Below the pieces are notes generated by a model, which ran no database searches, had not been told where the DNA came from, and was given only the letters and a program-made list of their open reading frames with translations. 64,000 nucleotides of DNA from Bacillales bacterium UBA6380. Lineage in GTDB: Bacteria; Bacillota_I; Bacilli_A; RFN20; CAG-826. The DNA is taken from contig DJQS01000011.1 in NCBI GenBank assembly GCA_002438785.1, positions 27,996 through 91,995 of the forward strand, written 5' to 3'. This document shows, piece by piece, positions 3,970 through 62,072 of this stretch (positions are counted from its first letter, which is position 1; the number at the start of each line of letters is the position of its first letter). The translations under genes and the position numbers were made by a program.

Positions 3970-3984
3970 ATATTATTAACAAGT

Positions 3985-7488: not shown

Positions 7489-7580
7489 AAAAATATTTTA
7501 ATTTTTTTTGAATGTAAATTCTATATATATTTATTAGAAATATGTTTATTAATATAAATTTATAAGGTAAACTCTAAATT

Positions 7581-9877: not shown

Positions 9878-11259
9878 TAATATCGATAATCATCCAACTT
9901 CTTTTGTCTTGTTGGGTGGCGTAACTTACGAATAGCCTTAGCTTCGATTTGTCTAATACGTTCTCTAGTGACACCAAATTCTTTCCCAACTTCTTCTAAA
10001 GTTCTTGGTTTATTATCATCTATGCCATACCTTAATCTAAGGACTCTTTCTTCACGGTCAGTTAAATCGCTCATTACATCATAAAGAGCTCTTCTTATCA
10101 TTGCCTGCGTTGTATAATCTGTAGGTGATATACTGTCTTTATCTTCAACAAAATCTCCTAAGTGAGAATCATCTTCTTCACCAATAGGGCTCTCTAATGA
10201 AACAGGTTCAAGTGCAATTCTTTGAATTTCACGAATTCTATCAGGTGTCATCGCTGGATTTTGCATCTCTTCACTTATTTCTTCAGGTGTAGGTTCTCTT
10301 CCTAGTTTCTGTGTAAGTTGACGTTGAACTTTTGTAATTTTATTAATAGTTTCAACCATATGAACTGGAATACGTATAGTTCTAGCTTGGTCAGCAATAG
10401 CTCTTGCGATAGATTGTTTTATCCACCATGTTGCATAAGTAGAAAATTTAAAATTCTTAGTATAATCAAATTTATCGACCGCTTTCATTAGACCAAGATT
10501 TCCTTCTTCAATAAGATCTAAAAATTGCATGCCACGTCCGATGTATCGTTTTGCAATATTGACAACTAAACGTAAATTTGCATTAATTAATTCGTTTTTA
10601 GCTTCAACGTCACCTTTTAAAATTCTTTTAGCTAACTCAGGTTCTTCACTTGGCTTTAATAACTTGAATTTCCCTATTTCTTTTAAATATAGTTTTACAC
10701 TATCGTTTACCTTTACATTACTTGTCTCTAAATCATCAAGTTTATCAACATCAATGGAAGCGGATTCTTTTTCACTTTCAGGAACCTTAGATTCATCAAT
10801 ATCATCTGTATCAATTAAATCTTCGTCATCAAGAGCATTTTCATCAAAATTCGAACCATCGAACTCAAGATTATCTAAGTCATCCGCTTCATCATTATTA
10901 AAGCCTTCACCAGTAATCTCATATCCTAAATTTTTAAAGTGTTCAAAAACTTTTTCATAGTCTTCATCGGTTAAATCAAGATAACTTGTTTCATCAGCAA
11001 ATTCATCTGTATCAAAAACTTTCGTTTTTTTGCACTTTTTATCAAATTCAGCGATAATGCTGTCCAAGCTCTTTATTGGCTCTTCTTCATCATCGACGAA
11101 ATCGTCAATATCATCAGTATTAATATCATTAGGTACTTCTGTTAGATCTTTTTTCTTGTTCAAATCTTTATCCTTCTTTTCACCTAATACTTTCGCCTTT
11201 TTTTTAGTTACATCTTTTTTAACTTTTTTAGCAGTTTCAACTTTTGTTTCCATAATCAT
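9877..11259 (-). CDS. rpoD: RNA polymerase primary sigma factor (sigma-70 / SigA) with an acidic N-terminal extension
   Basis: Regions 1.2 to 4.2 are recognisable ([44 protein letters not shown]). It follows dnaG. Confidence 0.95.
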
Positions 11260-11263
11260 CCTC

Positions 11264-13102
11264 CTATTTAATTAATTTTTTTCTCTTTTTTTCTATTAGT
11301 ATTTTATAAAGATTTGCTTTTTCTTCTATGGAAGAAGCTTCTTGCAATTCTTCATTAAAAGTTTTATTTTCTTTCTCCTCTTGCCTTATTTTTTCTAATG
11401 ATTTAAATTGGTTTTGCATTTCATTTATAGAGTAAGGGGGTAGTGTTACATCATTCAATGCGATATTAGCAATATTTTTTAAAATAAAATCTTTATCTTC
11501 AATTTCTTTATTTGATTCAACATAGTTAATAAATTCATTCAAATTAATTGATGCAGGTCGCTCTTTTAATCCATCGACATATTCATTTAATAACTTAACA
11601 ATATTTCGATATTTTAATGTCGGCAAAAATATATTGGCTCTTGCATAATCATCAATAGCATAAATGCTATCAAACATATATCTAACAATTTTGAATTGAA
11701 CTAATTCTTTTCCTTTTAAAATATCATTATTATAATATTTATTAAAATCAATTTCTAAATCATCACTTGACAAATTATTCTTATTAGCAGTTAACAATTT
11801 ATTGTAATATTCATATAAAAGTTGCTTACTATAACCAGTTAAAGAATAAAGTTTATCAATATAATCTTCTACATCAAATTTAGATTTTAATTTTATAATT
11901 TCCTTCATTAAATTTTTAACCAGTTCTTTTTTATTGTAACTACTGTTTAAATCCAAATTTTTACTATAATAACTGATTAACCATTCAGGCTTTTCAATTA
12001 AATTATTTAAAAAAGATAATAACTTCTCTTTTCCGTATTGATCAATAATTTCATCACTATCTTTTTCTTTAAAATCTACAATCGGATTAACTATTTTATA
12101 ATGTACATTATTTTCATCAAATTTACTGATTATATTATAAGTATTTATCTGCCCAGCATTATCTAAATCTAAGCAAATTCTAACTTCACAATTTAATTTT
12201 TTTAATAATTGCAAATGGTTGCTCGTTAATGCGGTCCCCATTAAAGCAATAGCATTTTTTATACCAGCACGATACAAAGCAATAACATCCATAAAACCTT
12301 CAAGCAAATAAACAAAACCTAATTGTCTAGCTGAAGTTTCTGCATTACAAAGATTATATAATATATTTCCTTTATTAAATGCATCAGTTGCACCAGTATT
12401 AATATATTTAGGTTCATCACTAACATCATTAAGTCTACGTGCGCTAAAACCACAGACTTGTCCACTTTCATCTTTTAAAGCAAAAACAACACGAGAAGCA
12501 TTGCTGTCATAAATAGACATATTATCTCTAATTCTACCAATACCTGTTCTTTCAATAGTTTTAATAGAATATCCCTTGGCTTTAAGAAAATTAACTATAT
12601 TAATTCCATCATCTAAAGAATAACCGATGTTAAAATATTTAATGACATCATCAGATAATTTACGATTATATAAATAATTTAATGCTTTCTTTCCATTTTC
12701 ACTTTGATATAAACTAGCTTGATAAAAATTATTAATATCAGTTAAGCATTTATAAAGTGTTGAAAGTTCAGGACTAATTTGTTTTGAAGCAATATTAGCA
12801 TTTAATCGATTATCATTGATACCACAAATTTTAGCAACTTCCTTCATTGCTTGAAAATATGATACTTTATCGTATTTTTCAATAAAATTAATCGCGTTAC
12901 CACTTGTATTGCAAACAAAACATTTAAATATTTGTTTTTCTTTTGAAATCATTAAAGATGGATTTTTATCATTATGAAAAGGACAAATTGCAACATAGTT
13001 TCTCCCTTTTTTTTCAACCTTAATTCTAGAAGAAATAACCTCAACTATATCGCTTTGCCTTAAAATATCATTTGATAACTGATAAAAATTATCATCCATC
13101 AT
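11264..13102 (-). CDS. dnaG: DNA primase
   Basis: Zinc-ribbon [10 protein letters not shown]...CFVC and TOPRIM (LLEGFMDV...DLDNAG). 612 aa. Confidence 0.9.
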
Positions 13103-14475
13103 TTATAAAAAGTTTTCTCCAATAAATAGTTTTTAAGATCTCTTATTTTAATTCTTTCTTGCTTCATTGTGTCTCTTTCTCTAATAGTAACACATTCATC
13201 ATTAATACTATCAAAATCAATAGTAACACAATAAGGAGTTCCTATTTCATCATTACGGCGATATCTTTTTCCAATAGAACCAGTCTCGTCAAAATTAACA
13301 TTTAAATAAGGTGTTAAATCATTATAAATCTTTTTAGCAAAATCGCTTAATTGCTTTGATAATGGTAAAATTGAAGCCTTATAAGGAGCTAAAAAAGATG
13401 GTAAATGCATAATTTTTCTTATCTCGCCATTCTCTAAAGTTTCTTCATCATAACTATTACAAACGACCATTAAAAAGAGCCTTTCAAGACCTAATGATGG
13501 TTCGATACAGTATGGAACATATTTTTCATTAGTTTCAGGATCCAAATATTCTAAGGATTCTCCACTAAATTCCATATGACGTTTCAAATCATAATCAGTA
13601 CGGTCAGCAATTCCCCACACTTCTCCCCAACCAAAAGGAAATTTATATTCTATATCAGTTGTAGCTTTACTATAAAATGCCAACTCTTCAGGCTCATGAT
13701 CTCTAAAACGCAAATCTTCAGCTTTAATATTTAAAGATTCAACAAACTTAATACAAAAATCTTTCCAATATTTAAACCATTCTAAATCCGTTCCTGGTTT
13801 GCAGAAAAATTCTAATTCCATTTGTTCAAATTCTCTAACTCTAAAAATAAAATTACCTGGAGTAATTTCATTTCTAAATGATTTCCCCATATTAGCGATA
13901 CCTAAAGGAAGTTTTCTTCTTGTAGCTCTTTGAACATTTTTAAAATTAACAAATACACCTTGTGCAGTTTCTGGTCTTAAATAAACTTCGCTTTTACTAT
14001 CTTCAGTAACACCAATATGTGTTTTAAACATCATATTGAATTGTCTTATATCTGTAAATTCGCTTTTTCCACAATGTGGACAAACCAATTTATGTAAATG
14101 CATAAATTTATTCATATCTTCAATAGACATTGCATTAACATCAACATCTTTATATTGAGATGAAATTAAATCATCAGCTCTATATCTACTCTTACAATTT
14201 TTGCAATCGATTAGAGGATCGTTAAAAGTAGTAACATGGCCTGTTGCTTGCCATACCTTAGGGTTCATTAAAATAGCCGCATCAATTCCAACATTTGTTG
14301 GTGATTCATGAACGAATTTTTTCCACCATAAATTTTTAAGATTTTGTTTAAGCTCGCTTCCAAGTGGTCCATAATCCCAAGAATTAGATAAACCACCATA
14401 TATTTGAGAACCTTGAAAAACGTAGCCAGTAGTTTGTAAATGAGTTACTATCTTATCAAATTCTATATTATTCAT
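13099..14475 (-). CDS. glyQS: Glycine--tRNA ligase (dimeric class II type)
   Basis: 458 aa with class II motifs ([21 protein letters not shown]). Lies in the recO-era neighbourhood. Confidence 0.9.
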
Positions 14476-14539
14476 ATATTGCTCCTAACACTTAAAGTAT
14501 TATAATTCTAAAAATATTGCTGTCAACCTACTATGAGTG

Positions 14540-15229
14540 TTAAAATAATTCTAGCGAATTTAATTTTAAATCAGTTTTACTTTCTAAAAAGAAGCCAAAA
14601 ATCTTAAAAATATTTATTGCACAACTTTCACATATAATATCGTTTAAAATATTTTCATTGCTAAATGTATCTTTAAAAATCTTCTCCTCTTCATTCGATA
14701 GTTCAATTATGTTTTTATCTTTTTCGAAAGTATTAGTTAATACACCATCATCAATATTAAAATATTTATAGCTTATACTAAAATCAAATAACGGCTTAAT
14801 TCCTAGCAAATTAAAATATTTCCCAATAAACAAAATAGCATAATTAAATTCAATATTTGTGTCATTTATTCCTTTAAAAACGAATATCGTTAAATTGTAT
14901 AATGCATTGAAGTCACTTATACCATCATAAGTTTTTAATGTTAATTCTGATATTAAATTAAATAATATTGATTTTTTGTAACTCTTTGAGTAATTCGAGA
15001 AATAATTAATAATTTCACAAGCTTTTATTTTATATCCACCAACTTTTCCTTTATATATTTCAAAATCGCCCTCGATAAATGACTCCGTTAAAATTAAATT
15101 TTTACTATTTAAATTATAAAAGCCCCTACCTAGATAGGAATAAATTCCATTTTTAGAAAGTATATTTAAAATTGCGTCATTATCTTTATAATGACTTACA
15201 AGTAAAATAAAGCCACGTATCGTTTCCAT
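14540..15229 (-). CDS. recO: DNA repair protein RecO
   Basis: 229 aa with an N-terminal OB-fold-like GFILLVSHYKDND and a C-terminal Cys pair. Conserved era-recO-glyS order. Confidence 0.7.
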   Translation of the reverse strand: METIRGFILLVSHYKDNDAILNILSKNGIYSYLGRGFYNLNSKNLILTESFIEGDFEIYKGKVGGYKIKACEIINYFSNYSKSYKKSILFNLISELTLKTYDGISDFNALYNLTIFVFKGINDTNIEFNYAILFIGKYFNLLGIKPLFDFSISYKYFNIDDGVLTNTFEKDKNIIELSNEEEKIFKDTFSNENILNDIICESCAINIFKIFGFFLESKTDLKLNSLELF

Positions 15230-16101
15230 TAGCGATATCCAATTTTTGCCAAAAAACTACTAGAATTACGCCAATTTTCTTGTACTTGAACATTTAACAC
15301 AAGATTAACATGTTTTTTAAGCATTTCCTCAATGTCTTTACGAGCTAAAATACCTATTTTCTTTATCATTTTAGCACCTTTCCCAATAACAATTCCTTTT
15401 TGCGATTCTTTTTCGACAATTATTTTTGCATATATCTCTAATTCTTTCTTACTATAATCTATATCATCACATAGTACAGCTATGCCGTGAGGAACTTCAT
15501 CTTTTAAACAAATGAGGGCTTTTTCTCTTACAATTTCTTGTACTCGAAAGCGGAAATCTTTATCAGTAATCGTGTGAACATCATAATATTGAGGGCCTTC
15601 TTTTAAATGATTTTTAATAAGTTTTATAAGACCATCTAGATTAAATTTCTCTTTAGCACTAATTTCAATAAAATCTGTATTTGGATACTTTTTTAAATAA
15701 ACATCTTTAACTTTTGTTATTAATTGAATATTTGTTAAATCAATTTTATTAAAAACGATAATCATATCACAATCAAATTTTAAATGATCCATGAGGTAAT
15801 AGTCGCCTTCACCTAAGTCATTACTAGCATCAATTACAAATAGAGCCAATTCACAATTTCTTATAGTGCTGTAAGCTCTTTTATCAAGTAATTCGCCTAA
15901 TTCATTATGTGGTTTATGAATTCCAGGCGTATCCAAAAAAACAATTTGAGAATCATTATCATTATAAATACCGATAATTTGATCTCTAGTTGTTTGACTT
16001 TTTGAAGTTACAATAGATATCTTTTCTCCTATAATAGCATTTAAAATAGTAGACTTTCCAACATTTGTTCTTCCTACTAGGGATACAAATCCACTTTTCA
16101 T
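15229..16101 (-). CDS. era: GTPase Era
   Basis: G1 GRTNVGKST, G3 DTPG, G4 NKID, and a C-terminal KH domain. 290 aa. Confidence 0.9.
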   Translation of the reverse strand: MKSGFVSLVGRTNVGKSTILNAIIGEKISIVTSKSQTTRDQIIGIYNDNDSQIVFLDTPGIHKPHNELGELLDKRAYSTIRNCELALFVIDASNDLGEGDYYLMDHLKFDCDMIIVFNKIDLTNIQLITKVKDVYLKKYPNTDFIEISAKEKFNLDGLIKLIKNHLKEGPQYYDVHTITDKDFRFRVQEIVREKALICLKDEVPHGIAVLCDDIDYSKKELEIYAKIIVEKESQKGIVIGKGAKMIKKIGILARKDIEEMLKKHVNLVLNVQVQENWRNSSSFLAKIGYR

Positions 16102-16502
16102 TAATTTAAATCCTCTTTATTAAAAGCAAATGGTAAAAGTTCTTTATTATTTGTTTCCAAGATATTACCTTTTAAATTTCCTAAAAAAATTTTAGCATCG
16201 CTAGGTAGTAATTCGCTCATTACTTGTCTGCAAGCACCACAAGGTGAACATGGTCCATCAGTATCACCTACGATTGCAATTGCAACTATATCCTCTTTTT
16301 TAATACCATTACAATAAGCATTATAAATAGCATTACGTTCAGCACACATGGAAAGACCATAAGATGAATTTTCAATATTAGTGCCCTTATAAACTTTATT
16401 ATCTTTGGTTAGTAAAGCAGCACCTACTTTAAATCTAGAATAAGGTGAATATGATAGTTTTCTAGCTTCTATTGCCATTTCTATTAATTTTTCTTTATCC
16501 AT
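16101..16502 (-). CDS. cdd: Cytidine deaminase
   Basis: CAERNAI and PCGACRQ zinc-binding motifs. 133 aa. Confidence 0.85.
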   Translation of the reverse strand: MDKEKLIEMAIEARKLSYSPYSRFKVGAALLTKDNKVYKGTNIENSSYGLSMCAERNAIYNAYCNGIKKEDIVAIAIVGDTDGPCSPCGACRQVMSELLPSDAKIFLGNLKGNILETNNKELLPFAFNKEDLN

Positions 16503-32026: not shown

Positions 32027-34423
32027 TCAATTCTTGTAAAATTCACGTAAAACTTTTTTTATTTCATCACTATTTTTAACTACCTTATAATTTTTCCATT
32101 CATTTCTAAATAAATTTAAGTACTTTTTATGTAAATAGCGCGAATCAATAAGCAAAACCGATCCTCTATCATTTTCACTTCTTATAAGCCTTCCAACCGC
32201 TTGCATAACACGATTCATGGCTGGATTGACATAAGTATAATTAAATCCATCCAAATTATTTTTATCATAATAATTTCGCAATATTTTACTTTCATAATCA
32301 AAAGAAGGTAAGCCTATCCCAATTATTATTACCCCTATAAGCCGATCATTAACAAGATCGATTCCTTCACTAAAACTACCACCAATCACTGCAATTCCAA
32401 TTGTAGTTTTCCTAGGGTTTTCTGTAAATGCTTCTAAAAAAGAAGATTTTTCTAGGTTTGTCATGCTCTTCTTTTGATATATGACATTATATTCTTTATC
32501 GAAATTAAGCCCACTTTTTAATTTGTAAAGATATTCATAAGAAGGCACAAATATTAAATAATTGCCCTTTTTTTCGTCAATAAAAGCCTTTATATTATTA
32601 ATTACTCCATTTAAACTTTTGTCTCTATCTTGATAAGCAATTGATAAACTATCATTTATCATTAAATTTAAATTTTTAGTATCAAACGGACTATCAAGAA
32701 GCAATTTATTATCATAAACATCATCAGTAAGTAATTTCGTATAATAATTTAAAGGACTTAATGTTGCACTAAAAAGTGTAGCACTATCGACTTTCTTTAA
32801 GGTATTATTGATAAATTCACTAGCATTTATACAATATAAATGTATTTCAAAGTCATTCATTTTTTTTCTTAAATAAATAGAAAAATTTTCATCCAATAAA
32901 TCATAAATTTTAAGAAATTTATATGATTCTAAAAAAAATTCATCTGCCTTTTCATAAATCTGAAATGGGTGATCATTAGAATATTTTTTATAGACATCTG
33001 ACATTTGTCTTAAATTTTTAACGAATTCATCATCGAGCTTTTCAAGTTTTAATTCAGAAATTTCCTCCTCTTCACTATTTATAAATTCTATTTTCTTAAA
33101 CATTGCAAAATTAGATGACAATTTTTTTAAATTCTTTTTTATATCAATATTCTTAATATTTTTTAATTCTTTTTTCATATTAGAAAAAAGAGAATTAGAT
33201 ATAAAAGACGAATACATATCACGACTTCGAGAAATTAGGTTATGCGCTTCATCAACTAATAAATCAATATTATAAGTCTTGTCAGGAGATTCAAAGAATC
33301 TTTTAAGAAAGGCAGTAGGATGAAATACATAATTATAATCGCAAATAATATAATCAACATAGTTGCTCAAATCTAAAGATAATTCAAATGGGCAAACATT
33401 CTCTTTTAATGCAATATCTTTAATAATCTTTTCATCAAATAAAAGATGATTTAGTAAAAGTTCTTTTAATATCTTTTTTATCTTATCGTAATAGCCACGA
33501 GCAAAAACGCAATTTTCAGGATTACATTTCTTTTTATCCGAAAGACACATTTTTTCCTTCGATAATATTTCGATACCAGTAATTTTTACTCCACTATTAT
33601 TAAATAACTTAAGGCTTGATAAAGCCAATTTAAATTCATTATTTTTAGGAGTTAAATAAAAAATTTTATCAATTTGAATATCTTTAAATGATAATAATGA
33701 ACCATAAATACACGAAACAGTTTTGCCAATTCCTGTTGGAGCTTCAATAAAACCAATTTCTTTATTAACAATGTCTTTATTGACGAACTCAATCATTTCC
33801 TTTTGGCCTTTTCTTAATTTCAAAAATGGAAATTTTAATTCTTTCAAAGATTGATTTCTATTTTCTTTTAAATCATCGATTATTTTTAAAAAATCTAAAT
33901 ATTCATAAAGATAACTTTCAACTTTGTTTTTAAGATCTATAAATGTATATTCAAAATTTTTATACGTTGTATTTTTATCAATTTGAGATATATATGTTAG
34001 CTGAATACCAATGCAATCTAATTTATTTTTAAGCGCATATAAATAGGCATAGCATTCAGCCTGTGCGAGATGCCACGAAAAGTTGTTATTAATGAATTTT
34101 TCACGATCACCAATATAGCTTTTTATTTCATCAATTATAACTTTTTTTTCACATTTAATTACGCCATCACATCTTCCATGAAGTCTTATTATATAATTAG
34201 AAATATTTATTGTGCCATCAACAGGAACTTCTGATTCATAAGTCTCATTTTGCTTTGATTGGACATATTGATGCATTATAATTCCTTCAAGCATTGTGGA
34301 ATTATTAAAATATCGATCATCAATATCGCCACTTCGTAAAATAAAATCAACTAACTGATGTACAGATAAATCAAAATATTTATTCAACTTTATCTCCGAC
34401 TTTAAAATAATGTTGCATTCCAT
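32027..34423 (-). CDS. Fusion protein: N-terminal PD-(D/E)xK (RecB/Cas4-like) nuclease domain plus a DinG/XPD-family Fe-S SF2 DNA helicase
   Basis: N-terminus has GRCDGVI...IDEIKSY (D...ExK) and QAECYAYLY (QxxxY). The helicase has Walker A APTGIGKT, a four-Cys cluster (C..C..C...CPF), DEAH box LLVDEAHNL, and motif VI GRLIRSENDRGSVLLID. Confidence 0.65.
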   Translation of the reverse strand: MECNIILKSEIKLNKYFDLSVHQLVDFILRSGDIDDRYFNNSTMLEGIIMHQYVQSKQNETYESEVPVDGTINISNYIIRLHGRCDGVIKCEKKVIIDEIKSYIGDREKFINNNFSWHLAQAECYAYLYALKNKLDCIGIQLTYISQIDKNTTYKNFEYTFIDLKNKVESYLYEYLDFLKIIDDLKENRNQSLKELKFPFLKLRKGQKEMIEFVNKDIVNKEIGFIEAPTGIGKTVSCIYGSLLSFKDIQIDKIFYLTPKNNEFKLALSSLKLFNNSGVKITGIEILSKEKMCLSDKKKCNPENCVFARGYYDKIKKILKELLLNHLLFDEKIIKDIALKENVCPFELSLDLSNYVDYIICDYNYVFHPTAFLKRFFESPDKTYNIDLLVDEAHNLISRSRDMYSSFISNSLFSNMKKELKNIKNIDIKKNLKKLSSNFAMFKKIEFINSEEEEISELKLEKLDDEFVKNLRQMSDVYKKYSNDHPFQIYEKADEFFLESYKFLKIYDLLDENFSIYLRKKMNDFEIHLYCINASEFINNTLKKVDSATLFSATLSPLNYYTKLLTDDVYDNKLLLDSPFDTKNLNLMINDSLSIAYQDRDKSLNGVINNIKAFIDEKKGNYLIFVPSYEYLYKLKSGLNFDKEYNVIYQKKSMTNLEKSSFLEAFTENPRKTTIGIAVIGGSFSEGIDLVNDRLIGVIIIGIGLPSFDYESKILRNYYDKNNLDGFNYTYVNPAMNRVMQAVGRLIRSENDRGSVLLIDSRYLHKKYLNLFRNEWKNYKVVKNSDEIKKVLREFYKN

Positions 34424-36755: not shown

Positions 36756-38774
36756 TTAGAAAATACTAAAATAATAAGTGATTGTACCTTCAATATCAGT
36801 TCTTCTAATCTTAATGTCTAATGCATTTAATTTTTCTAATGTTTCATAATGAGGATGATTAAATTTATTATTTTTTCCGCATGAAATAATAGCTTCTTTT
36901 GGATTGCATTTTTCCAAAAAATTATATGATGATGAACTGTTCGATCCATGATGCCCAACTTTTAAATAATCGCATTTTATATTATTATCAATTATTTCGT
37001 TTTCGACCATTGAGCTTGCATCTCCCATTAATAAAAATTTATAATCTTTAATACAAAAACTTAAAACAAGTGATTTATCATTCTCAGAATAATTACTTTT
37101 AGAAAAAGGGTTGAGGTTTTCAAAAGTAAAATATCTCGTTTTTATTGGAAAAACATTGCTATTATCAATTATTTTTTTAATTTTAAAATTATGTGATAAT
37201 TGCTTTAATGAACCATAATGATCAAAATCATAATGTGTTATAAAAACATAATCTAAGTTATAAATACGTTTTTTTCTTAAAAAAGGAATTAATACATTAG
37301 ATGCTATATCATAATTTAAATTACCACCAGTATCAATTAAAATAGATTCTGTTTTATATCTAATTAATGTTGAATCACCTTGTCCCACATTTATAAAATT
37401 AATTTCGCAAGTAAATTGATTTTTAATTGGAAGGATATAAATAACAATACAAAGTAGATTGATTATTATTAACTTATTTTTATAATAAGTAAAATTAATT
37501 TCGAAAAAATATATTGTAACGATTAATAAAGCAAAAAATAAAACTAAATAAATTTGATTAAATGGCGGTATATACACATCAAATAAAGAAATATTTATAT
37601 TAGTGAAACAATTTATCGTAACTCTAAATATTTTTTCATAAAGACTCAAATGTAGACCATAAAAATATAGTATACTAATTAAAAATAAAAATTTAAAATA
37701 TGGTAATAATAAAATATTCAATAATATGTAAACTAAATTAAATCCGTTATTTGTTGAAATTATAAAAGGTAATAATATTACATAAAAAAGCGTTTTTGAA
37801 CGTATTCTCTTCTTGATATTTTTTTCATATCCAAGATAGTTTTTAAATAAATAAAATGAAATTACAATTAATAAAGGTATGTAAAATGATTGGCTATAAA
37901 TCAACGTTTTATTTATCAAAATAAATATCAAAAATAATAATAGTTTAATTGACAATTTATATTCATCATTTTTATTATCAATCAAAAATATTCCTAATAA
38001 AAACATTGAAACTGTCCTTATAAATAAAAACCGATGAAGATTCAAAATAAATATTGGTGTAAATACAATTAAAGAAATTACTCGACTTGTTCTATCACTA
38101 AATTTATACGCCAATAATTTAGATACGCCATATAATATAAAATTTATAAAAGTGCCGCATCCTGATACTAAATTTATTATCATAAGTTTTTTACTTATGT
38201 AATATAAATTTGAATTTATTTCTATTTCTCCAAATAGGAGGCTCGACATAAAAATCTTTGCATTATTATCTTGTATAGCGTTTAAAAAATTTCGCTTTAT
38301 CTTATTAAATCTAATTGGAGATTTAACTAAAATTTCGCTTTTTTTAATATTTAATTTTCTATATATATCGTTATTATTTAAAAATTCTTCAAAGTTAAAA
38401 GAACTTTCATATGAAGTAAAATCTAAATCTTGAAAAGTTCCGTCTATTTTTAAAATGTCGAATTGATCTATTTGGTTATTTTCCGAATAACAATAAAATT
38501 TTTCTTTTAAAGTTTTAAAAATAAAGTAATTATCTTTTCTTTTAAGAACTATTCCTATTAGATTGTTAGATGTTTTTTCCTTAAAGCAATTTATTGATCT
38601 TAATATACCAAATGCAAAAAATACTGTCGCAACTAAAATTAATTTTTTTGTTTTAAATCTTTTAATTAATAAATAAATTACAATAAGTAAAAATGTTATA
38701 GTTAGAATTAAATACTTTATTTTAATTAATAATAATCCTGCTATGTATGATAATAATAGCAATAAAACAAACAT
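36756..38774 (-). CDS. comEC: DNA internalisation competence protein ComEC/Rec2
   Basis: About ten TM helices, a competence domain, and a C-terminal metallo-beta-lactamase domain (HYDFDHYG, VGHHGS). 672 aa. Confidence 0.85.
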   Translation of the reverse strand: MFVLLLLLSYIAGLLLIKIKYLILTITFLLIVIYLLIKRFKTKKLILVATVFFAFGILRSINCFKEKTSNNLIGIVLKRKDNYFIFKTLKEKFYCYSENNQIDQFDILKIDGTFQDLDFTSYESSFNFEEFLNNNDIYRKLNIKKSEILVKSPIRFNKIKRNFLNAIQDNNAKIFMSSLLFGEIEINSNLYYISKKLMIINLVSGCGTFINFILYGVSKLLAYKFSDRTSRVISLIVFTPIFILNLHRFLFIRTVSMFLLGIFLIDNKNDEYKLSIKLLLFLIFILINKTLIYSQSFYIPLLIVISFYLFKNYLGYEKNIKKRIRSKTLFYVILLPFIISTNNGFNLVYILLNILLLPYFKFLFLISILYFYGLHLSLYEKIFRVTINCFTNINISLFDVYIPPFNQIYLVLFFALLIVTIYFFEINFTYYKNKLIIINLLCIVIYILPIKNQFTCEINFINVGQGDSTLIRYKTESILIDTGGNLNYDIASNVLIPFLRKKRIYNLDYVFITHYDFDHYGSLKQLSHNFKIKKIIDNSNVFPIKTRYFTFENLNPFSKSNYSENDKSLVLSFCIKDYKFLLMGDASSMVENEIIDNNIKCDYLKVGHHGSNSSSSYNFLEKCNPKEAIISCGKNNKFNHPHYETLEKLNALDIKIRRTDIEGTITYYFSIF

Positions 38775-53478: not shown

Positions 53479-56181
53479 TTATTTAGCTTCAAAACTTGAT
53501 TGTGAATAACTACCTGGATTTTCATCACCTTCTGTAGGTTCTTTATATTCCGCTGTATGAACAAGAACTTTAGATCCTTTGTTACTATTACCATTTTTTG
53601 TATTATCAATAATACCTTCTTGCTTTAATTGTGCAAAAATTTTATTTGAACGATTAAACCCAAAGTTAAATTCTCTTTGAATCATCGAAATACTGCAATA
53701 AGCTTTAGATTCCATAATAAATTGTTTGACAGTTTCATACATTTCATCTTGAGGGACTTCGTGAATAACGCCTAAATCATTCTGCTCTAAGCGCGTCTTT
53801 TCAAGTAAACCTACAAATTTATCATTATAATTTAAAGGATAATTAGCCTTTAAATAATCAACTACACGTTTAATTTCCATATTATCAACAAAGCATCCCT
53901 GAACCCTAGGTTTTTCTTGTTTAGAAATAAGATTACAACTTACAAGCATATCACCATTACCAAGTAATTTTTCAGCTCCACCTTCTCCTAATATAACCAT
54001 ACTATCAGTTGTACTTGAAGTTAATAAAGCTACTCTAGTTCCTAAATTAGCTTTTATACTACCGGTAATTACATCAGTAGAAGGACGTTGAGTTGCTATA
54101 ATCATATGAATACCAGCAGCTCTAGCTTTTTGACCAAGTCTTTGTACAGGCTTTTCAACACTTTTAACTGATTCAATTAAGTCTGCAAATTCATCTATTA
54201 TAACGATAATGTAAGGTAATTTTTCAGTATGAGTTTCAGTAGCATATTGATTAAATTGTTTTATATTACTTACGCCAGTAAGTTCAAATTTCGTGTATCG
54301 ATCTTCCATTTCATCTACAAGTTTTTGTAATGTTGCACTAGCTTCAGTTGGTTCAGTAATAATTGGACAAAGTAAATGAGGCATTTCCTTATATTTACTA
54401 AATTCAACACGTTTTGGATCAACCATTACAAGTCTTAAATCTTCAGGTGAATTTCTCATTATTAAAGAAAGAATGACAGAATGCATAAAAATTGATTTAC
54501 CACTACCTGTTGTACCACAAACTAACATATGTGGAAAATCAACTAAATCAGCATTTATATAGCTTCCACTAATGTTTTTTCCAAAAGGAATAAATAGACT
54601 TCCTTGTTTTGGCAAAGGTAAATGCATATAAACATCTTTAAAATTTACTAATGATCGATCTTCATTAGCGATTTCAATACCTGAAGTAGTTTTCCCTTGA
54701 ACAATAGGAACGAAACGTGCATCCATTCCACCAAGTCTAACTGAAATATCATCCATATATTTAGCAATACCATTAATAGAAGCTGAAGCTTCAGTCTTTA
54801 AATCGTATCTAGTAACTGAAGGTCCAATAGTATATCCAACTATCGTTGCCTTAATTTTTAAATCACTAAGAATATTATTAATAAGACTCATCCTATTTTC
54901 AGCACACAATTTATTTCTTTCTTCTTCTTCAACACTATTTCTATCTTCTAAATAATCGCTTGGAACGGTTTTAAATGGTTTGTATTTAATAGTTTGTTTA
55001 GTGTCGTTACTTTTTTTATTTATTATAGGATTTTCATTATTTATATCATTATCATTAAATTCCACTTTAATATTAGCTTCATTATTTATACTGTTACTTA
55101 CTGATTCAGTCAATTTTGGCTCTTGGATTTTATTTAATAACTCATTGCTTTTAGTTTCACTTTCGAAATTAGTGTTATTAACACCAAAACTATCTTGAAT
55201 GTAATTAGATTTACCTAAAATATCATTATTTATATTATTATTTTCGACATAATTATTATCATTAATCGACTTAGTTTCATAATTATCATCATTACTTTCA
55301 CCGAGTTTAAATTTAACTTTTTCTAAACCACTATTTTCATATATTTTTTTTGATGTAGATTTATTAATAAATTCATTTCTTTCTTTATAATCTGAATTTA
55401 TTTTAAATTGATAACTATTTTTATTATTGCTTAAATCATCATTAGTTGTTTTTTTGCTAGTATCAACATTAGTAGATAAATTTTTATCTTCATTAATTAA
55501 TGAAGGTTCATCGATATTCCCATCTCTAAATAATTCATTAGTTGAACTACTAATATTATCAATTAAAGATAATTCTTCCTTATTTTCATTATAATTAGTT
55601 TGTTTGAATGCGTTTTCTTTTTTATCATTTTTAATCGATTTTATTAATTGTAATAAAGGACGAATCAATGAAAAAACTGTCCCAATTGCAATTAAAATTG
55701 AAGAAAATATCTTTGAACCTAAATCAGTCATAGCGCTATTTAAAATTGCTACTAATAAATATCCTATAAATCCACCGGTTTTACTTACATTAACTTTTGG
55801 AAATTCATTTAAATTCATAGAGTCAATTAAAGTCTCAACAAAATTATTAAATGTAAGATAATCACCATTTTTATAACTAATTGAATTAGTTGTTGCGATA
55901 AGAACTCCAATCGATATCATAATTAAACCAATTAACAAAAAGCGAATATTATGGAAAGTTATTTTTTTATTAATAAAAAAACTTAACCCATACAAAAATA
56001 TTATAAAAGCAAATATATAAGTAAAAATACTTCCAAAAATTAAACTACATACCCAAAACAAAAATTCACTAATATAACCATGATTTAAAGCTAAAATTAT
56101 AGCTAAGGAGCAAATAGCAACACCGATAACAATTTTTAAACTTTTTTCATTAATTTTTAATTTAATTTTATTATCATTCAT
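53479..56181 (-). CDS. ftsK: DNA translocase FtsK/SpoIIIE
   Basis: N-terminal four to five TM helices, a long N/S/D/K-rich low-complexity linker, a C-terminal motor with Walker A GTTGSGKS and Walker B, and a gamma wHTH domain. 900 aa. Confidence 0.9.
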   Translation of the reverse strand: MNDNKIKLKINEKSLKIVIGVAICSLAIILALNHGYISEFLFWVCSLIFGSIFTYIFAFIIFLYGLSFFINKKITFHNIRFLLIGLIMISIGVLIATTNSISYKNGDYLTFNNFVETLIDSMNLNEFPKVNVSKTGGFIGYLLVAILNSAMTDLGSKIFSSILIAIGTVFSLIRPLLQLIKSIKNDKKENAFKQTNYNENKEELSLIDNISSSTNELFRDGNIDEPSLINEDKNLSTNVDTSKKTTNDDLSNNKNSYQFKINSDYKERNEFINKSTSKKIYENSGLEKVKFKLGESNDDNYETKSINDNNYVENNNINNDILGKSNYIQDSFGVNNTNFESETKSNELLNKIQEPKLTESVSNSINNEANIKVEFNDNDINNENPIINKKSNDTKQTIKYKPFKTVPSDYLEDRNSVEEEERNKLCAENRMSLINNILSDLKIKATIVGYTIGPSVTRYDLKTEASASINGIAKYMDDISVRLGGMDARFVPIVQGKTTSGIEIANEDRSLVNFKDVYMHLPLPKQGSLFIPFGKNISGSYINADLVDFPHMLVCGTTGSGKSIFMHSVILSLIMRNSPEDLRLVMVDPKRVEFSKYKEMPHLLCPIITEPTEASATLQKLVDEMEDRYTKFELTGVSNIKQFNQYATETHTEKLPYIIVIIDEFADLIESVKSVEKPVQRLGQKARAAGIHMIIATQRPSTDVITGSIKANLGTRVALLTSSTTDSMVILGEGGAEKLLGNGDMLVSCNLISKQEKPRVQGCFVDNMEIKRVVDYLKANYPLNYNDKFVGLLEKTRLEQNDLGVIHEVPQDEMYETVKQFIMESKAYCSISMIQREFNFGFNRSNKIFAQLKQEGIIDNTKNGNSNKGSKVLVHTAEYKEPTEGDENPGSYSQSSFEAK

Positions 56182-56230: not shown

Positions 56231-57925
56231 TTAATCTACACAAATAATATTTGTTTTAATTAATGGATTTCGATTATTTTGTTTAAATAAAAATTTTGAA
56301 ATATTTTCATTAATCTTATTTTCTAATTGTTCTAAACTTAATTTCTTATTACCTTTTAAATAATCGTTTACTTGATCAACAAACATCCTTGTTACTTCTT
56401 TTAAAACTAAGTCTGCATCTTTATCTTTTAAAAATAAGAAACCTCTCATTTGAACATCAGGTCCATATTCTATTTCTTTGTTTTTTAAAGAAACACCTAA
56501 TCCCATTACAATAACACCATCTTCACTAAGTCTATTACGTTCATTAATAATCTCATTAACAACATCACCAACACCAATGCCATCAATCATAACATCACCA
56601 ATTGGAAGTTTATTCTCAGAATTAAAATCTACATTAGTTCCATTATCATCAATATATAAAGTTTGCCCATTATCTAATAGAAAAATATTATTATGCGATA
56701 ATCCGATTCCCATATCAAAAGCAATCTTTGCATTAGCTAATAAATTAACATAATATCCTTCGATTGGAAAATAATATTTAGGCTTTAATAAACTTAAAAG
56801 CATTTTAATATCTTCTTCACATGCATGCATTTTTGAAATAACTTTATTAGTTAAATATCTAACATGGCAACCACTACGATATAATTCATCAATAGTTGTA
56901 GTAAAAATAACTTCGTTATTATCATTTGGAGGACATGCCAAAATAAAGGTATCGTTTGGTTGAATTTTAATTTGCTTTAATTCATTTTCACCATTAGCCA
57001 ATAAACTAGCTTTCTCATATAAAGATTCTTTTTCGCCTGCCATAATAATAACAAGTTCATTCTCTTTTATGCGTAAAATATCATCAAGCGAAATAAACGA
57101 ATTTTTATAAGAATAAAAAGAATCATTATTTGATAATTTCTTTAAATTATATATTTGTTCAGTTTCTTTATCATAAAAACATATTTTTTTATTAAATTCA
57201 GAGCAAATCTTAAAAACTTCTTCAAAATTATAAAGATTATCTTTTGCTAAACCTATAAAAATACGCCCGTTTGCACTTTTAAAAAATTTCTGTAAATGTG
57301 GCGTTAATCTATTATTAGGAGAACAATATCCAGATTTTGATGCATTACTTGAATCACACATTAATAAAAGTGTAGGATATTCTGCAATCTTACCGATTGT
57401 ATTTAAATCAAAACTAAAATATTTTGAGTTATTATATTCAACTACAAAGTCGCCACTATAGACAATATTGCCTAATTTAGTTCTTATTGAAAATCCAAAA
57501 GATAATGGAACACTAGAACATGTTGAAAAGAAATCACATTTATATCCTGCAATATCAATTTCACTAGGTAAAGCTATCTCGTGAATATCAAAATTATTTT
57601 CTTGCTTATATTCTTTAGCAAATTCTAAGAAAAAGTTTTTTGTTAATTTTGTACAATAAATAGGTGCTGGACATTCTTTATAAATATAAGGTAAGGCACC
57701 AAAATTATTCTTTTTTGTTTTAGGCAAAATATAGGCAACTATTTTTTCTTTATTTTCATTTAAATATGTAAAATCAGCGATAATAAAATCAATGCCTGGA
57801 GTAAGTTTAGTTGGATATTTAAATCCACAATTTACTACAAATATTTTATTATTAATCTCAATGCAATAAAGATCTTTTCCTTCTTCATCTAATCCGCCCA
57901 ACGCTAAAACTTTAATTTTTTCCAT
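56231..57925 (-). CDS. rnjB: RNase J-family protein with a degenerate metallo-beta-lactamase active site (RNase J2-like, likely catalytically impaired)
   Basis: Full-length RNase J architecture (beta-lactamase, beta-CASP, C-terminal domain). The HGHEDHIG motif is replaced by LPKTKKNNFG and the second His motif by STCSSVP. Position between pnp and ftsK corresponds to Bacillus rnjB. Confidence 0.7.
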   Translation of the reverse strand: MEKIKVLALGGLDEEGKDLYCIEINNKIFVVNCGFKYPTKLTPGIDFIIADFTYLNENKEKIVAYILPKTKKNNFGALPYIYKECPAPIYCTKLTKNFFLEFAKEYKQENNFDIHEIALPSEIDIAGYKCDFFSTCSSVPLSFGFSIRTKLGNIVYSGDFVVEYNNSKYFSFDLNTIGKIAEYPTLLLMCDSSNASKSGYCSPNNRLTPHLQKFFKSANGRIFIGLAKDNLYNFEEVFKICSEFNKKICFYDKETEQIYNLKKLSNNDSFYSYKNSFISLDDILRIKENELVIIMAGEKESLYEKASLLANGENELKQIKIQPNDTFILACPPNDNNEVIFTTTIDELYRSGCHVRYLTNKVISKMHACEEDIKMLLSLLKPKYYFPIEGYYVNLLANAKIAFDMGIGLSHNNIFLLDNGQTLYIDDNGTNVDFNSENKLPIGDVMIDGIGVGDVVNEIINERNRLSEDGVIVMGLGVSLKNKEIEYGPDVQMRGFLFLKDKDADLVLKEVTRMFVDQVNDYLKGNKKLSLEQLENKINENISKFLFKQNNRNPLIKTNIICVD

Positions 57926-58017
57926 ATATTTTCCTTTATAAATTAATTCGTAAATATTTTAACAAAAATAATAAGTTTGTTAAATAAATTACTCATATTT
58001 TATACAATTATATTTAA

Positions 58018-58046
58018 CTTAAAAAGGACTTTTTTAGTCCTTTTTA
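58018..58046 (-). terminator. Rho-independent terminator of pnp
   Basis: AAAAAGGACT-tttt-AGTCCTTTTT, a perfect 10-bp stem flanked by A and T runs. Confidence 0.75.
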
Positions 58047-58050
58047 ATTT

Positions 58051-60228
58051 TTATTTATTATTATCTTTTTTTCTAAAGAAACCTCTTTTTTTTGGCTCTT
58101 CATTATTTGCTTTATTATCACTAGCAAAATCTTTATGAGATAATTTTATTTTACCATGATCATCAATTCCAATAACTTTAACTTTAAATTTTTCGCCAAC
58201 TCTAACAAAATTTTTAGCACTATCTACTCTTTCATTTGCAAGTTGAGAAACATGACATAATCCTTCAGTGTCACCAAACAAATGAACAAAACATCCATAG
58301 TCTTCAACACGTGTTACAATGCCATCGTAAATTTCACCAATTTCTGCTTCTTTAGTGATTGAATCAATAATATCATGAGCTTTAACAATTGAAGCTTTAT
58401 CAGTATGATAAATAGTAACATGTCCATCATCTTCAATGTCAATTTTTACGCCATTACATTTTTCAATGATGTCATTAATAACTTTTCCACCACTTCCAAT
58501 AACATCTTTAATTTTATCTTTATCAATATAAAAGCTTTCAAATTTAGGAGCATATTCCGATAATTCTTTACGAGGTTCACTAATTGCTTGAGCCATGACA
58601 TCACGAATCTTAGCACGAGCACTATTAGCTTGAAGAAGGGCATCATGTAAAATTTCACGGGTAACACCTTTAATTTTAATATCCATTTGTAAAGCTGTAA
58701 TACCATTTTTAGTACCGGCAACCTTAAAATCCATATCCCCAAAATGATCTTCTAAACCTTGAATATCAGTTAAAATCGTATAAGGGTGTTTACCATCTAG
58801 TGGTCCACTAGTAATTAACCCCATAGCTATACCACTAACAATATTTTTAATTGGAACGCCTGCAGCCATTAAAGCCATACAAGAAGCACAAATAGATGCT
58901 TGTGAACTACTGCCATTACTTTCTACAACCTCAGCAACACATCTAATTGTATAAGGGAATTCTTCTTCACTAGGAATAACATAGGATAATGCTCTTTCAC
59001 CTAAAGCACCATGTCCAATTTCTCTTCTTCCTGGAGTACCAGTTCTACCAATTTCACCTACAGCAAAAGGTGGAAAATTATAATGATGCATCCATCTCTT
59101 ATTATCTTCTGGTGTTAAATTTTCCAAAATTTGTACATCATTTTTGGTCCCTAAAGTACAAGTTGCAATAACTTGAGTTTGTCCACGAGTAAACATTGCA
59201 CTGCCATGTACTCTTGGTAATAAATCAACTTGAGCATTTAATGGTCTAATTTCATCGACTTTACGACCATCAGGTCTAATTTTTTCTTCTGTAATGAGTC
59301 TTCTTACTTCATCAGCAATCATTTTTTCTAATATGTCATTAACCATGAGCATCATTAGTTTATGGTCATTTTCTTTTTTATATTCACGATTATCATAATC
59401 ATCGATAATTTCTTTTTTTAAAGCATCAATAGCATTTTGTCTTTCTAATTTATCAAAAATAGAAATAGCTTTTACCATTCGATCATAAACTCTTGAATAA
59501 ATATCATTTTTAACATTTTCATCTGGCTCATATAGCTTTACTTGTCTTTTTGGTTTTCCTATTTCTTGAGCAATTTCTTTTTGAAAAGCACAAAGTTTTT
59601 TAATAGCTTCATGACCAAACATAATTGCATCAAGCATTTCATCTTCACTTAGTTCATTAGCTCCTGCTTCAACCATATTAATTGCTTCGCTAGTTCCAGC
59701 AACAGCTAAATTAAGATCACTTTTTTCTTTTTCTTCAACACTAGGATTAATGATTAATTTCCCATCAACTCGCCCGACATAAACACCAGCAATTGGACCA
59801 TCAAAAGGTATATTACTGATTGAAAGTGCTAATGAACTACCAAACATTGCAGTCATTTCAGGAGTTGCATCTAAATCAACAGACATTACAGTATTAATAA
59901 TCTGGACTTCATTTCTAAAGCCATCACTAAACATTGGTCTAATAGGCCTATCAATAAGTCTAGCAGTTAAAGTTGCATGTTCTCCTGGTCTACCTTCTCT
60001 TCTTAAAAAACCACCAGGAATTCTACCAATTGCATAAAGTTTTTCTTCATAAGTGACAGTTAAAGGGAAAAAATCCCCTTCTTTAGGTTCATCACTACAA
60101 CATGCAGTAGATAAAACAACCGTATCATTAAATCGTGTAAATACTGCACCATCTGCTTGTTTTGCTATCTCACCAGTTTCAACTACAAGCTTTTTCCCAT
60201 AAAATTCTAATTCGAATACTTTTTTCAT
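58051..60228 (-). CDS. pnp: Polyribonucleotide nucleotidyltransferase (PNPase)
   Basis: Two RNase PH domains, KH and S1 domains. 725 aa. Confidence 0.95.
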   Translation of the reverse strand: MKKVFELEFYGKKLVVETGEIAKQADGAVFTRFNDTVVLSTACCSDEPKEGDFFPLTVTYEEKLYAIGRIPGGFLRREGRPGEHATLTARLIDRPIRPMFSDGFRNEVQIINTVMSVDLDATPEMTAMFGSSLALSISNIPFDGPIAGVYVGRVDGKLIINPSVEEKEKSDLNLAVAGTSEAINMVEAGANELSEDEMLDAIMFGHEAIKKLCAFQKEIAQEIGKPKRQVKLYEPDENVKNDIYSRVYDRMVKAISIFDKLERQNAIDALKKEIIDDYDNREYKKENDHKLMMLMVNDILEKMIADEVRRLITEEKIRPDGRKVDEIRPLNAQVDLLPRVHGSAMFTRGQTQVIATCTLGTKNDVQILENLTPEDNKRWMHHYNFPPFAVGEIGRTGTPGRREIGHGALGERALSYVIPSEEEFPYTIRCVAEVVESNGSSSQASICASCMALMAAGVPIKNIVSGIAMGLITSGPLDGKHPYTILTDIQGLEDHFGDMDFKVAGTKNGITALQMDIKIKGVTREILHDALLQANSARAKIRDVMAQAISEPRKELSEYAPKFESFYIDKDKIKDVIGSGGKVINDIIEKCNGVKIDIEDDGHVTIYHTDKASIVKAHDIIDSITKEAEIGEIYDGIVTRVEDYGCFVHLFGDTEGLCHVSQLANERVDSAKNFVRVGEKFKVKVIGIDDHGKIKLSHKDFASDNKANNEEPKKRGFFRKKDNNK

Positions 60229-60314
60229 TTCTCTTGTTTTTCATCCTTTTTAATACTATTAAAATATATCACTATTTAATTCAATATACTAATCTTTATT
60301 TGTCTTTATGAAAT

Positions 60315-62072
60315 CTAACGATATTGTGAATTAAATAAATTATAATAAAAACCATGTAAATTCATTAAATCTCTATGATTACCTTTTTCTATTATTTCTC
60401 CATTATTTAACACCAATATTAAATCACTAGACTTAATAGTAGATAATCTATGAGCAATTACAATCGATGTTTTATCTTTCATTAGATGGTCTAATGCTTT
60501 TCCAATATTGATTTCAGTTCTTGTATCAACATTACTTGTAGCCTCATCTAATATTAAAAGTTCAAATGGCATAAGCATGACTCGAGCTATACATAATAAT
60601 TGCTTCTCACCTTTACTTAAACCTGAATCATTTGAAATTACTGTCTCAAATCCTTTAGGTAAACGCATAATTAAATCATAGCAATTTGCTTCTTTACTAG
60701 CTTTTACTACATCATCAAAACTTGCATTCGGATTACCATATTTTATATTTTCTAATACCGTACCATGAAATATCCAACTATCTTGAAGAACCATTCCAAA
60801 CTTGCTTCTTAAGCTCATTTTTTGAATATTTAAATAATTTGTATTATTAATTAGAATTTCCCCAGCATTAGGATCATAAAATCTTAACAATAAATTGATT
60901 ATTGTAGTTTTACCACATCCAGTAGGACCAACAATAGCAATTTTTTGATTGTTTTTAACTGTAAAGTTTATATTTTTAAATAAAATTTTATTATTATCAT
61001 AACCAAATTTTAGATTCTTAATATCAATATAATTTATAATCTCTTCGATTTTTAATTTGCCTTCATCTATATCATCTTTAGCATTAAATACTTCAATAAT
61101 TCTATTTAAAGAGACAAAACCACTTTGAATTTCATTTAAACAACTTGAAATTTCATTTAAAGGCTTAGCAAATTGGTTTGCATATTGTAAAAAAGTAGTA
61201 ATTCCTCCAACGGTTAATTCAATTCCTATATTTAAATTTGAACCAAATGCAACCAAAATAGACCCTACTATTCCAACTAAAGCATATGTTGAATTATTAA
61301 TTAATCTTGTTACTGGATTAGTTAATGAAGATAAAAATTGTGACTTTTGTCCAGCTTTATATAATAAGTTATTTTTGCTTATAAATTTTTCAAATGAATC
61401 AATGTCATAATTAAATGACTTAATTACATCAAGATTTTCAAAGTCTTCTAAGACTTGTGCACCTAGTTTTCCTGTTTCATAAGCTTGTTTTTTAAAATAA
61501 ATATGACTTTTTTTACTAAGTAAATAAGATAGTAAAAAACTTAATGGCGTAAATATAATGATTATTAATGCTAATAACCAATTTTGCCAAAGCATAAAAC
61601 CTAATGTAAATATAATTGTAATTATTCCTTGATAAAATTGTTTATATCCACTAATTAATCCTAATGAGACATTATCAACATCATTTATTAATCTACTTAT
61701 AATATCGCCATGGAGATGATTATCTATAAATGATATAGACATAGAATTTATTTTATTAAATAAATCAACCCTTATATTGCATATAATTTTTTCAATAAAT
61801 ATATTTACAAAACTTTCAAATATATATTGAAAAATAGTAACAATTATAATCAATGAAATAATTACATATAAATATGTCAATTCATCATTAAGCATTGTTT
61901 CATAACTAATAAGTGGATTGTTTATTATGTTTGTAAAAATATCAATACATTTTCCACTAAAATAAGGAATTAACAATAATGCAGGGACAAAAATTAAACA
62001 GCAAATAAAAGAAAAAATAACTGATTTTAATGACTTTTTTAAATATTTAAAAAGAAATTTAAAATTATTCAT
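60315..62072 (-). CDS. ABC exporter, fused permease/ATPase half-transporter (multidrug/lipid exporter type), partner B
   Basis: Six TM helices then an NBD: Walker A GPTGCGKTT, signature LSKGEKQ, Walker B LILDEATS, H-loop. 585 aa. Confidence 0.85.
   Translation of the reverse strand: MNNFKFLFKYLKKSLKSVIFSFICCLIFVPALLLIPYFSGKCIDIFTNIINNPLISYETMLNDELTYLYVIISLIIIVTIFQYIFESFVNIFIEKIICNIRVDLFNKINSMSISFIDNHLHGDIISRLINDVDNVSLGLISGYKQFYQGIITIIFTLGFMLWQNWLLALIIIIFTPLSFLLSYLLSKKSHIYFKKQAYETGKLGAQVLEDFENLDVIKSFNYDIDSFEKFISKNNLLYKAGQKSQFLSSLTNPVTRLINNSTYALVGIVGSILVAFGSNLNIGIELTVGGITTFLQYANQFAKPLNEISSCLNEIQSGFVSLNRIIEVFNAKDDIDEGKLKIEEIINYIDIKNLKFGYDNNKILFKNINFTVKNNQKIAIVGPTGCGKTTIINLLLRFYDPNAGEILINNTNYLNIQKMSLRSKFGMVLQDSWIFHGTVLENIKYGNPNASFDDVVKASKEANCYDLIMRLPKGFETVISNDSGLSKGEKQLLCIARVMLMPFELLILDEATSNVDTRTEINIGKALDHLMKDKTSIVIAHRLSTIKSSDLILVLNNGEIIEKGNHRDLMNLHGFYYNLFNSQYR

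Follow-up and report, generated by a model that had tools for sequence, protein, structure and literature searches.

The closest described relatives of the protein considered here are the RNase J2 proteins of Staphylococcus aureus and Bacillus subtilis. In S. aureus J2 a single Mn ion is held by H76, H78, H80, H144, and E166, and an H80A or E166A substitution alone suffices to abolish activity (PMC11815676). Motif II of B. subtilis J2 reads HGHDEN; an H76A substitution abolishes the activity of J2 and leaves the half-lives of its targets unchanged, J2 being proposed as a specificity factor for J1 (bioRxiv 10.64898/2026.05.27.728192). Similarly, an S. aureus strain carrying the H76A/H78A (AGA) form of J2 grows as wild type, for which a structural role has been proposed, while deletion of J2 renders the cells nearly as sick as deletion of J1 (PMC3937233). 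The concept of a non-catalytic J2 is thus already known, the genetics in both organisms indicating that it is the presence of J2, rather than its active site, that matters.

In a preprint by Condon/Durand, J2 has been likened to CPSF100 and IntS9 (bioRxiv 10.64898/2026.05.27.728192), i.e. inactive beta-CASP paralogs that lack metal ligands and are paired with the active CPSF73 and IntS11. CPSF100 and IntS9 differ in being eukaryotic and represent inactive partners of independent origin, and the pairing of the protein described below is a prediction. Known J2 proteins (motif II HGHDEN or HGHEHA) keep the first two histidines, the His142/144 ligand, a bound Mn, and weak activity; by contrast, all the His ligands are gone from the protein described here.

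A J2-type protein with the architecture of the family

The gene occupies positions 56231-57925 (- strand) of the window, i.e. the whole 64-kb stretch of DNA that was analyzed, and is a complete open reading frame of 564 codons for amino acids with an ATG start. On the combined basis of the complete frame and of Pfam, NCBIfam, phmmer, and Foldseek comparisons, it is annotated as an RNase J2 ortholog with a remodeled, His-free metal site. In a phmmer comparison with PDB sequences, S. epidermidis/S. aureus RNase J2 (6k6w/8yy*, E 1.5e-90) covers residues 3-556 of the protein and B. subtilis J1 (3zq4, E 1.8e-79) covers residues 4-558, so that the end-to-end alignment claimed for this RNase J paralog in the first-pass annotation, made from the sequence alone, holds. 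The bit scores, 307 for J2 vs 271 and 267 for J1, place the protein nearer to J2 than to J1 by a modest margin; it is an RNase J2-type paralog.

Pfam detects a beta-CASP domain (RNase_J_b_CASP, PF22505, E 5e-8; residues 220-348, 56882-57268, - strand) and an RNase J C-terminal domain, the dimerization domain of the family (RNase_J_C, PF17770, E 4.8e-15; residues 459-561, 56243-56551, - strand), and gives no match to the Lactamase_B domain in the protein. The curated family cut-offs are not reached, the scores being 347.1 for TIGR00649 (cut-off 400) and 365.1 for NF047419, the RnjA model (cut-off 820). The architecture is that of the RNase J family, with a metallo-β-lactamase (MBL) core, an inserted beta-CASP domain, a linker, and a C-terminal domain, all alignable throughout; of the metal-binding motifs I-IV and A-C, D159 and H367 alone remain.

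From the family alignment, AlphaFold gives a confident model (pLDDT 82.7), whose top Foldseek match is 9a5v_A, from an integrative model of B. subtilis RNJ2-RNJ1 (TM 0.82). Full-length J1/J2 models and structures, including 9a5v and 3zq4, give TM values of 0.77-0.82, and the remaining full-length RNase J structures 0.76-0.80, the best matches including both J1 (3zq4) and J2 (6k6w); structures of IntS9-IntS11 are among the weaker matches. Thus the three-part architecture and fold are like those of J2 from B. subtilis and S. aureus/S. epidermidis (6k6w, 8yy*, 9a5v). J1 (RnjA; 3zq4, and the P0197/P0612 lineage of gut metagenome-assembled genomes (MAGs)) shares the family and the domain order, but has all the ligands (HGHEDH, HS, GDFK, SGH, HGE/D); its identity to the window protein is only 27-29%. 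A 91-residue open reading frame on the + strand (56478-56753), antisense to the RNase J gene, is probably a spurious product of AT-rich sequence.

Gene order and expression signals

The neighborhood reads nusA-ylxR-infB-rbfA-ribF-rpsO-(two ABC transporter genes)-pnp-J-ftsK-pullulanase-acyltransferase-rsmF, and this order is conserved in five clade members, down to 62% identity. By synteny, the conserved upstream neighbor, pnp (PNPase), is at 58051-60228 (- strand), and the conserved downstream neighbor, ftsK/spoIIIE, is at 53479-56181 (- strand), 49 nt past the stop codon of the J gene; no terminator was found between the two genes in this 49-nt gap. A frame of 85 residues at 55604-55861 (+ strand), antisense to ftsK, likewise probably reflects spurious coding potential of AT-rich sequence. 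Directly past the pnp stop codon there is a palindromic, terminator-like hairpin, AAAAAGGAC-loop-GTCCTTTTT (58019-58047). By consensus match, a promoter-like site, TTAACA-16-(TG)TAAAAT, lies ~30 nt upstream of the ATG (57956-57983, - strand), and a Shine-Dalgarno sequence, AGGA, lies 6 nt before it (57932-57935, - strand); the J gene may thus be expressed from its own promoter-like site.

In S. aureus the genes for PNPase (SAR1250) and J2 (SAR1251) are adjacent (PMC4419217). As in B. subtilis and Staphylococcus, the J2-type gene in the window is beside pnp and ftsK. The B. subtilis order, pnpA ... rnjB ... spoIIIE, matches that of the window locus. By position (rpsO-pnp-J-ftsK), the window gene is thus orthologous to rnjB. 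The first-pass annotation had regarded its position between pnp and ftsK as mirroring rnjB, and the conserved synteny and the S. aureus adjacency support this; likewise, the proposed J2-like identity agrees with the best PDB match, the top Foldseek match, and the gene position.

The nearest relatives outside the clade form a sister clade (P0078-P0120, uncultured "Bacilli bacterium", e.g. P0084) with 42-47% identity and the same gene order. The P0084 locus reads truB-ribF-rpsO-pnp-(four inserted genes)-J2-ftsK-acpS-pullulanase-acyltransferase-rsmF-PYNP. The four genes between pnp and J2 in the sister clade (locus L236, 4409-7988) encode two FAD oxidoreductases, a DUF1667 protein, and a metallophosphoesterase; in the window and the rest of its clade there are two genes instead, for ABC transporters, and these lie between rpsO and pnp (cf. 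window 58051-60315). In related loci acpS follows ftsK. P0084 reads HGHDDE at motif II, TAH at motif III, and PVKG at motif C, its HGHDDE closely resembling the HGHDEN of B. subtilis J2. Since P0084 has this motif in a matching gene order, the window gene can be regarded as the positional ortholog of a typical, partly degenerate J2 that lost its last histidines without changing its place in the genome.

Remodeling of the metal site

The motif II (HxHxDH) remnant, ILPKTKKNNFGALPY (57686-57730, - strand), is identified by alignment and by clade conservation, and has KTKKNN where RNase J has HGHEDH: K69 and K71 take the place of the first two histidines, and K72, N73, and N74 those of E/D, D, and H. 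The loss of every His of this motif had been noted from the sequence alone; the loss was understated, in that the Asp of the motif has gone as well. The motif I Asp is replaced by N32. The motif III remnant, FFSTCSSVPLS (57500-57532, - strand), contains the STCSSVP reported in place of the second His cluster, with S137 at the position of the His142/144 ligand. Motif IV is kept by alignment as YSGDFV (57443-57460, - strand), including D159, which corresponds to D164 of B. subtilis J1 and E166 of S. aureus J2 and is the sole surviving equivalent of a metal ligand. This motif, together with the Pfam beta-CASP match, accords with the earlier view that the surrounding motifs are retained.

In the alignment, beta-CASP motif B is SKMHACEED (56810-56836, - strand), in which H367, the retained equivalent of B. 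subtilis H368, is invariant in the clade, and in which the SGH 5'-phosphate pocket of J1 has become KMH. KMHA, where J1 has SGHA, is common to the window clade and its sister clade. Motif C is YFPIEGYY (56750-56773, - strand), with E389 in place of J1 H390, a position at which the sister clade has Lys and Staphylococcus J2 has Gln. A missing motif C His is common to all the J2-like proteins, including the window protein. By contrast, HGHDD[EQ], T[AV]H, the Lys at motif C, and a match to Lactamase_B are features of the sister clade that are absent from the window clade, where two invariant lysines replace the J2 histidines and Lactamase_B goes undetected by Pfam.

The column-by-column alignment with S. 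aureus J2, a comparison proposed in the first-pass annotation, gives the Mn ligands H76/H78/H80/H144/E166 as K69/K71/N73/S137/D159 in the window protein, i.e. four of the five are lost. From these replacements it would follow that the protein is unable to perform metal-dependent RNase J cleavage.

Conservation and selection

A search of ~5.8 billion proteins yielded the clade and the sister group as sets of cluster representatives. The clade comprises 77 representatives with 56-100% identity, all without a Lactamase_B match; named members, all uncultured and absent from UniRef, come from MAGs titled Candidatus Onthovivens sp., Mollicutes bacterium, or Erysipelotrichaceae bacterium. One member is on contigs of 1.03-1.08 Mb, implying small genomes.

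Site conservation was counted in the 76 full-length members. K71, C136, S138, D159, and H367 are present in all 76, K69 in 75 (the exception having Arg), E389 in 64, and Lys or Arg at position 72 in 58. For six orthologs with available DNA, dN is 0.18-0.39, as against a saturated dS of no less than 0.9. The MBL core, in both its halves (residues 1-205 and 372-450), has a lower dN than the beta-CASP or C-terminal domain. Within-species counts of synonymous and nonsynonymous differences were discarded as circular, the loci having been chosen by exact protein identity. Independent gut metagenomes yielded at least 24 contigs that encode an identical protein; together with the remodeled site common to 76 representatives, these identical genes argue that the site results neither from sequencing error nor from chance. 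The gene is kept under purifying selection.

A decaying pseudogene or annotation artefact, as might be suspected from the absence of the hallmark motifs and the two NCBIfam scores under their cut-offs, is difficult to reconcile with a frame that is intact and full-length in 76 representatives down to 56% identity, with dN far below dS, with invariant replacement residues, with a confidently modeled fold, or with the ribosome binding site and promoter-like site (as consensus matches); this explanation has a negligible probability and is effectively refuted. The slow evolution of the core and its fixed Lys, Asp, Glu, and His residues instead suggest that the former active-site cleft still does something. 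A point against a wholly inert protein is that D159, H367, and E389 vary little or not at all and that no other region is as conserved as the cleft, such that some chemistry or ligand binding there appears to be under selection.

The host lineage

The GC content of the window is ~26%, and TGA serves as a stop codon. CGG is almost absent, with two occurrences (32342-32344 and 38031-38033, both - strand) among ~18,500 codons in open reading frames of at least 200 codons, AGA being the main Arg codon. Onthovivens is listed among the lineages with a predicted reassignment of CGG from Arg to Trp (2026 NAR, PMC13092985); no CGG is present in the RNase J gene, the translation of which is thus unaffected by such a reassignment. 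Over positions 1-64000 the GC skew is negative in each 4-kb bin and nearly all long open reading frames are on the - strand, and there is no tRNA gene within the 64-kb window.

The question of a J1 partner

The first-pass annotation proposed a catalytically dead, J2-like scaffold or regulator, implying that the genome also encodes an active J1 at another locus. In the 64-kb window no second RNase J was found, either by phmmer against all open reading frames of at least 100 residues or by tblastn with nine J1 proteins. A 212-residue frame at 3337-3972 (- strand) gives a weak tblastn match (E ~1e-4) to the J1 HxHxDH region; as a candidate RNase J it was rejected, being a small, separate MBL-fold protein.

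A J1 lineage from related organisms was identified among 1.84 billion representatives with HMMER. Its member P0197 is of the J1 type (592 bits to B. subtilis J1 vs 392 to J2); P0199, considered as a seed for the lineage J1, was rejected because it is the Spiroplasma J1. A scan of GTDB species genomes with the J1 alignment located the P0197 lineage (56-87% identity) in at least 49 MAGs, whose titles name uncultured Bacilli, Tenericutes, Mycoplasma sp., or Candidatus Onthousia. The GC content is 23-35% at 48 of the 49 listed loci; none of the listed MAGs is from the three assemblies that could be tied to a remodeled J gene, CAVEAX01, CAYLSZ01, and CAZJPX01. The lineage also includes Candidatus Fimihabitans, placed in the order RF39. 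A peptide directly after GDFK, FD[FL][NT]P[IV]GP, is present in 50 of 50 J1 proteins of the lineage and in none of the 156 other J1 proteins tested. The J1 loci with this peptide (L016-L064 and L099-L218) are from uncultured gut Bacilli, RF39-type and relatives.

In a scan of metagenome DNA, contig Ga0268357_100682, among the matches listed, carries the J1 peptide. It is from JGI sample 3300028580, as is contig Ga0268357_100713, which has a remodeled J gene (P0029); the two are similar in size and in GC (0.289 and 0.294, respectively). This J1 is represented in its cluster by P0612, a 99% variant from a 2-kb contig. This represents co-occurrence of J1 with the remodeled J2, not co-residence. 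The fetched loci include no contig or assembly with both genes, and a comparison of assemblies and samples for nine proteins yielded no record in common; nor do the samples of the J1 representatives P0642, P0677, and P0614 overlap those of the remodeled P0001 and P0011. The largest contigs of the two sets of clusters gave no exact match, the values describing cluster representatives only, and contigs of 242,083 and 242,286 bp, considered as a possible pair, were rejected as coming from unrelated samples.

At one J1 locus (L112) the flanking trmK-sigA-dnaG genes match the window at 9.2-13.1 kb; since the trmK-sigA-dnaG-J1 arrangement is specific to L112, the absence of J1 from that place in the window is uninformative. 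The window there (6136-16116, - strand) reads era-recO-(class II aaRS)-dnaG-sigA-trmK-NIF3, then a DEAD-box helicase gene, with lytB on the opposite strand. In L112 rnjA is directly beside dnaG, the corresponding place in the window having an aminoacyl-tRNA synthetase gene. In some strains of a single gut organism with J1 (L240 and L241), genes for a reverse transcriptase (RVT_1) and bAvd, along with a fragment of MutS_I, are found upstream of and beside rnjA, at ~6.4-8.3 kb; they form a set that resembles a diversity-generating retroelement, and that is absent from the otherwise identical L239 and L242.

It could be argued that J1 has been lost and that the window protein is the sole member of the RNase J family in its hosts, binding RNA or providing a scaffold without catalysis, e.g. 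with the PNPase encoded by the adjacent gene. The conserved adjacency to pnp across the clade, the small genomes (~1.03-1.08 Mb contigs), and the fact that none of the window, the fetched loci, or the assembly and sample comparisons tied a J1 to a genome with the remodeled gene are in line with this. However, J1 and J2 are both present in every Mollicutes genome surveyed by Grosjean et al. (PMC4014445), an intact J1 lineage is abundant in similar MAGs and is present in one shared sample, the pnp-rnjB adjacency is ancestral (as it occurs in S. aureus) and hence unspecific, and the search for J1 covered the window and the fetched loci rather than whole genomes. Loss of J1 is accordingly considered quite improbable, and its presence in the genomes with the remodeled gene likely but unproven.

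Function of the remodeled protein

Taken with the genetics of J2 in S. aureus and B. subtilis, the loss of the metal site under maintained selection favors the dead J2-like scaffold or regulator proposed at the outset: the window protein is probably a catalytically inert J2 that serves as a structural or specificity partner of a J1 encoded elsewhere. In uncultured, AT-rich, small-genome gut Bacilli/"Mollicutes" (Onthovivens and relatives), an already degenerate HGHD[DE]x J2 site would have been fully rebuilt, with invariant Lys for both leading histidines, Asn and Ala/Ser for the third and fourth His ligands, and Glu at motif C, while the whole RNase J fold, including the MBL core, beta-CASP domain, linker, and C-terminal dimerization domain, is retained. 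The inert J2 would then pair with an active J1, stabilizing or steering it as in S. aureus and B. subtilis; as regards a heterodimer or heterotetramer with J1, the C-terminal domain is the one part whose conservation can be recognized. Its conserved Lys/Asp/Glu/His cleft may still hold RNA without cutting it, the most plausible roles for the cleft being metal-free maintenance of the fold and/or binding of RNA phosphate. On this analogy, the clade would be the natural end point of a J2 that acts by its presence rather than by its active site.

A more specific proposal, in which lysines replace the metal, is that K69 and K71, with D159, E389, and H367, form a metal-free RNA clamp working for J1 or PNPase. 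The ammonium groups may occupy both former metal positions, held by the surviving acidic ligands, such that the cleft stays folded, and it may grip RNA phosphate uncut and so present or withhold substrates; in the most extreme version the protein may be a metal-independent nuclease. The clamp as a whole is regarded as unlikely.

Less probable still, and indeed very unlikely, is a nuclease or hydrolase with a different chemistry, in which K69/K71 together with H367, D159, and E389 would constitute a metal-independent or differently liganded site. In its favor, there is fixation, not drift, at the replaced positions, the former catalytic core evolves slowest, and S. aureus J2 is reportedly non-canonical, with a mainly structural metal (PMC11815676); the same study, however, identifies H80 and E166 as essential in S. 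aureus J2, and H80 is Asn here, while in B. subtilis H76A abolishes activity (bioRxiv 10.64898/2026.05.27.728192). Moreover, 16 other His-less J2-like clusters have unrelated residues at these positions, for which loss of function is the better fit. A further point against a different chemistry is that we know of no member of the MBL/beta-CASP superfamily that works without metal.

Distribution and significance

The frequency of such sites was surveyed in the best 146 representatives at 50% identity with aligned motif II columns. All ligands are present in 67 of these, the H390 equivalent, whose absence is the J2-like hallmark, is missing in 78, and all five histidines are lost in 18, of which 16 lie outside the window clade and have unrelated replacement residues (P0131, P0137, P0144, P0153, P0154, P0159, P0160, P0168, P0170, P0183, P0212, P0217, P0223, P0226, P0230, and P0251). 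The J2 site has thus been fully eroded in many parts of sequence space. Within the best 146 representatives, Lys-x-Lys at both His positions is confined to the window clade. In 5 of the 16 other His-less clusters the first His is likewise replaced by Lys, and several of the 16 are extremely AT-rich and may be from Mollicutes.

No description of a histidine-free J2 was found in the literature, where texts on HxHxDH treat partial degeneracy only. Rather than a new kind of system, the protein described here represents an extreme form of one already known, in which one beta-CASP paralog is active and the other inactive. One practical consequence is that the name "ribonuclease J", as given by public pipelines, overstates activity when the capacity for RNA decay is deduced from MAGs. 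The clade represents nature's version of the J2 active-site mutant experiment, in which a J2 without a metal site is strongly selected in gut genomes of ~1 Mb, and it offers a clean system for the non-catalytic role of J2, whether this is dimer stabilization, substrate selection, or the holding of RNA.
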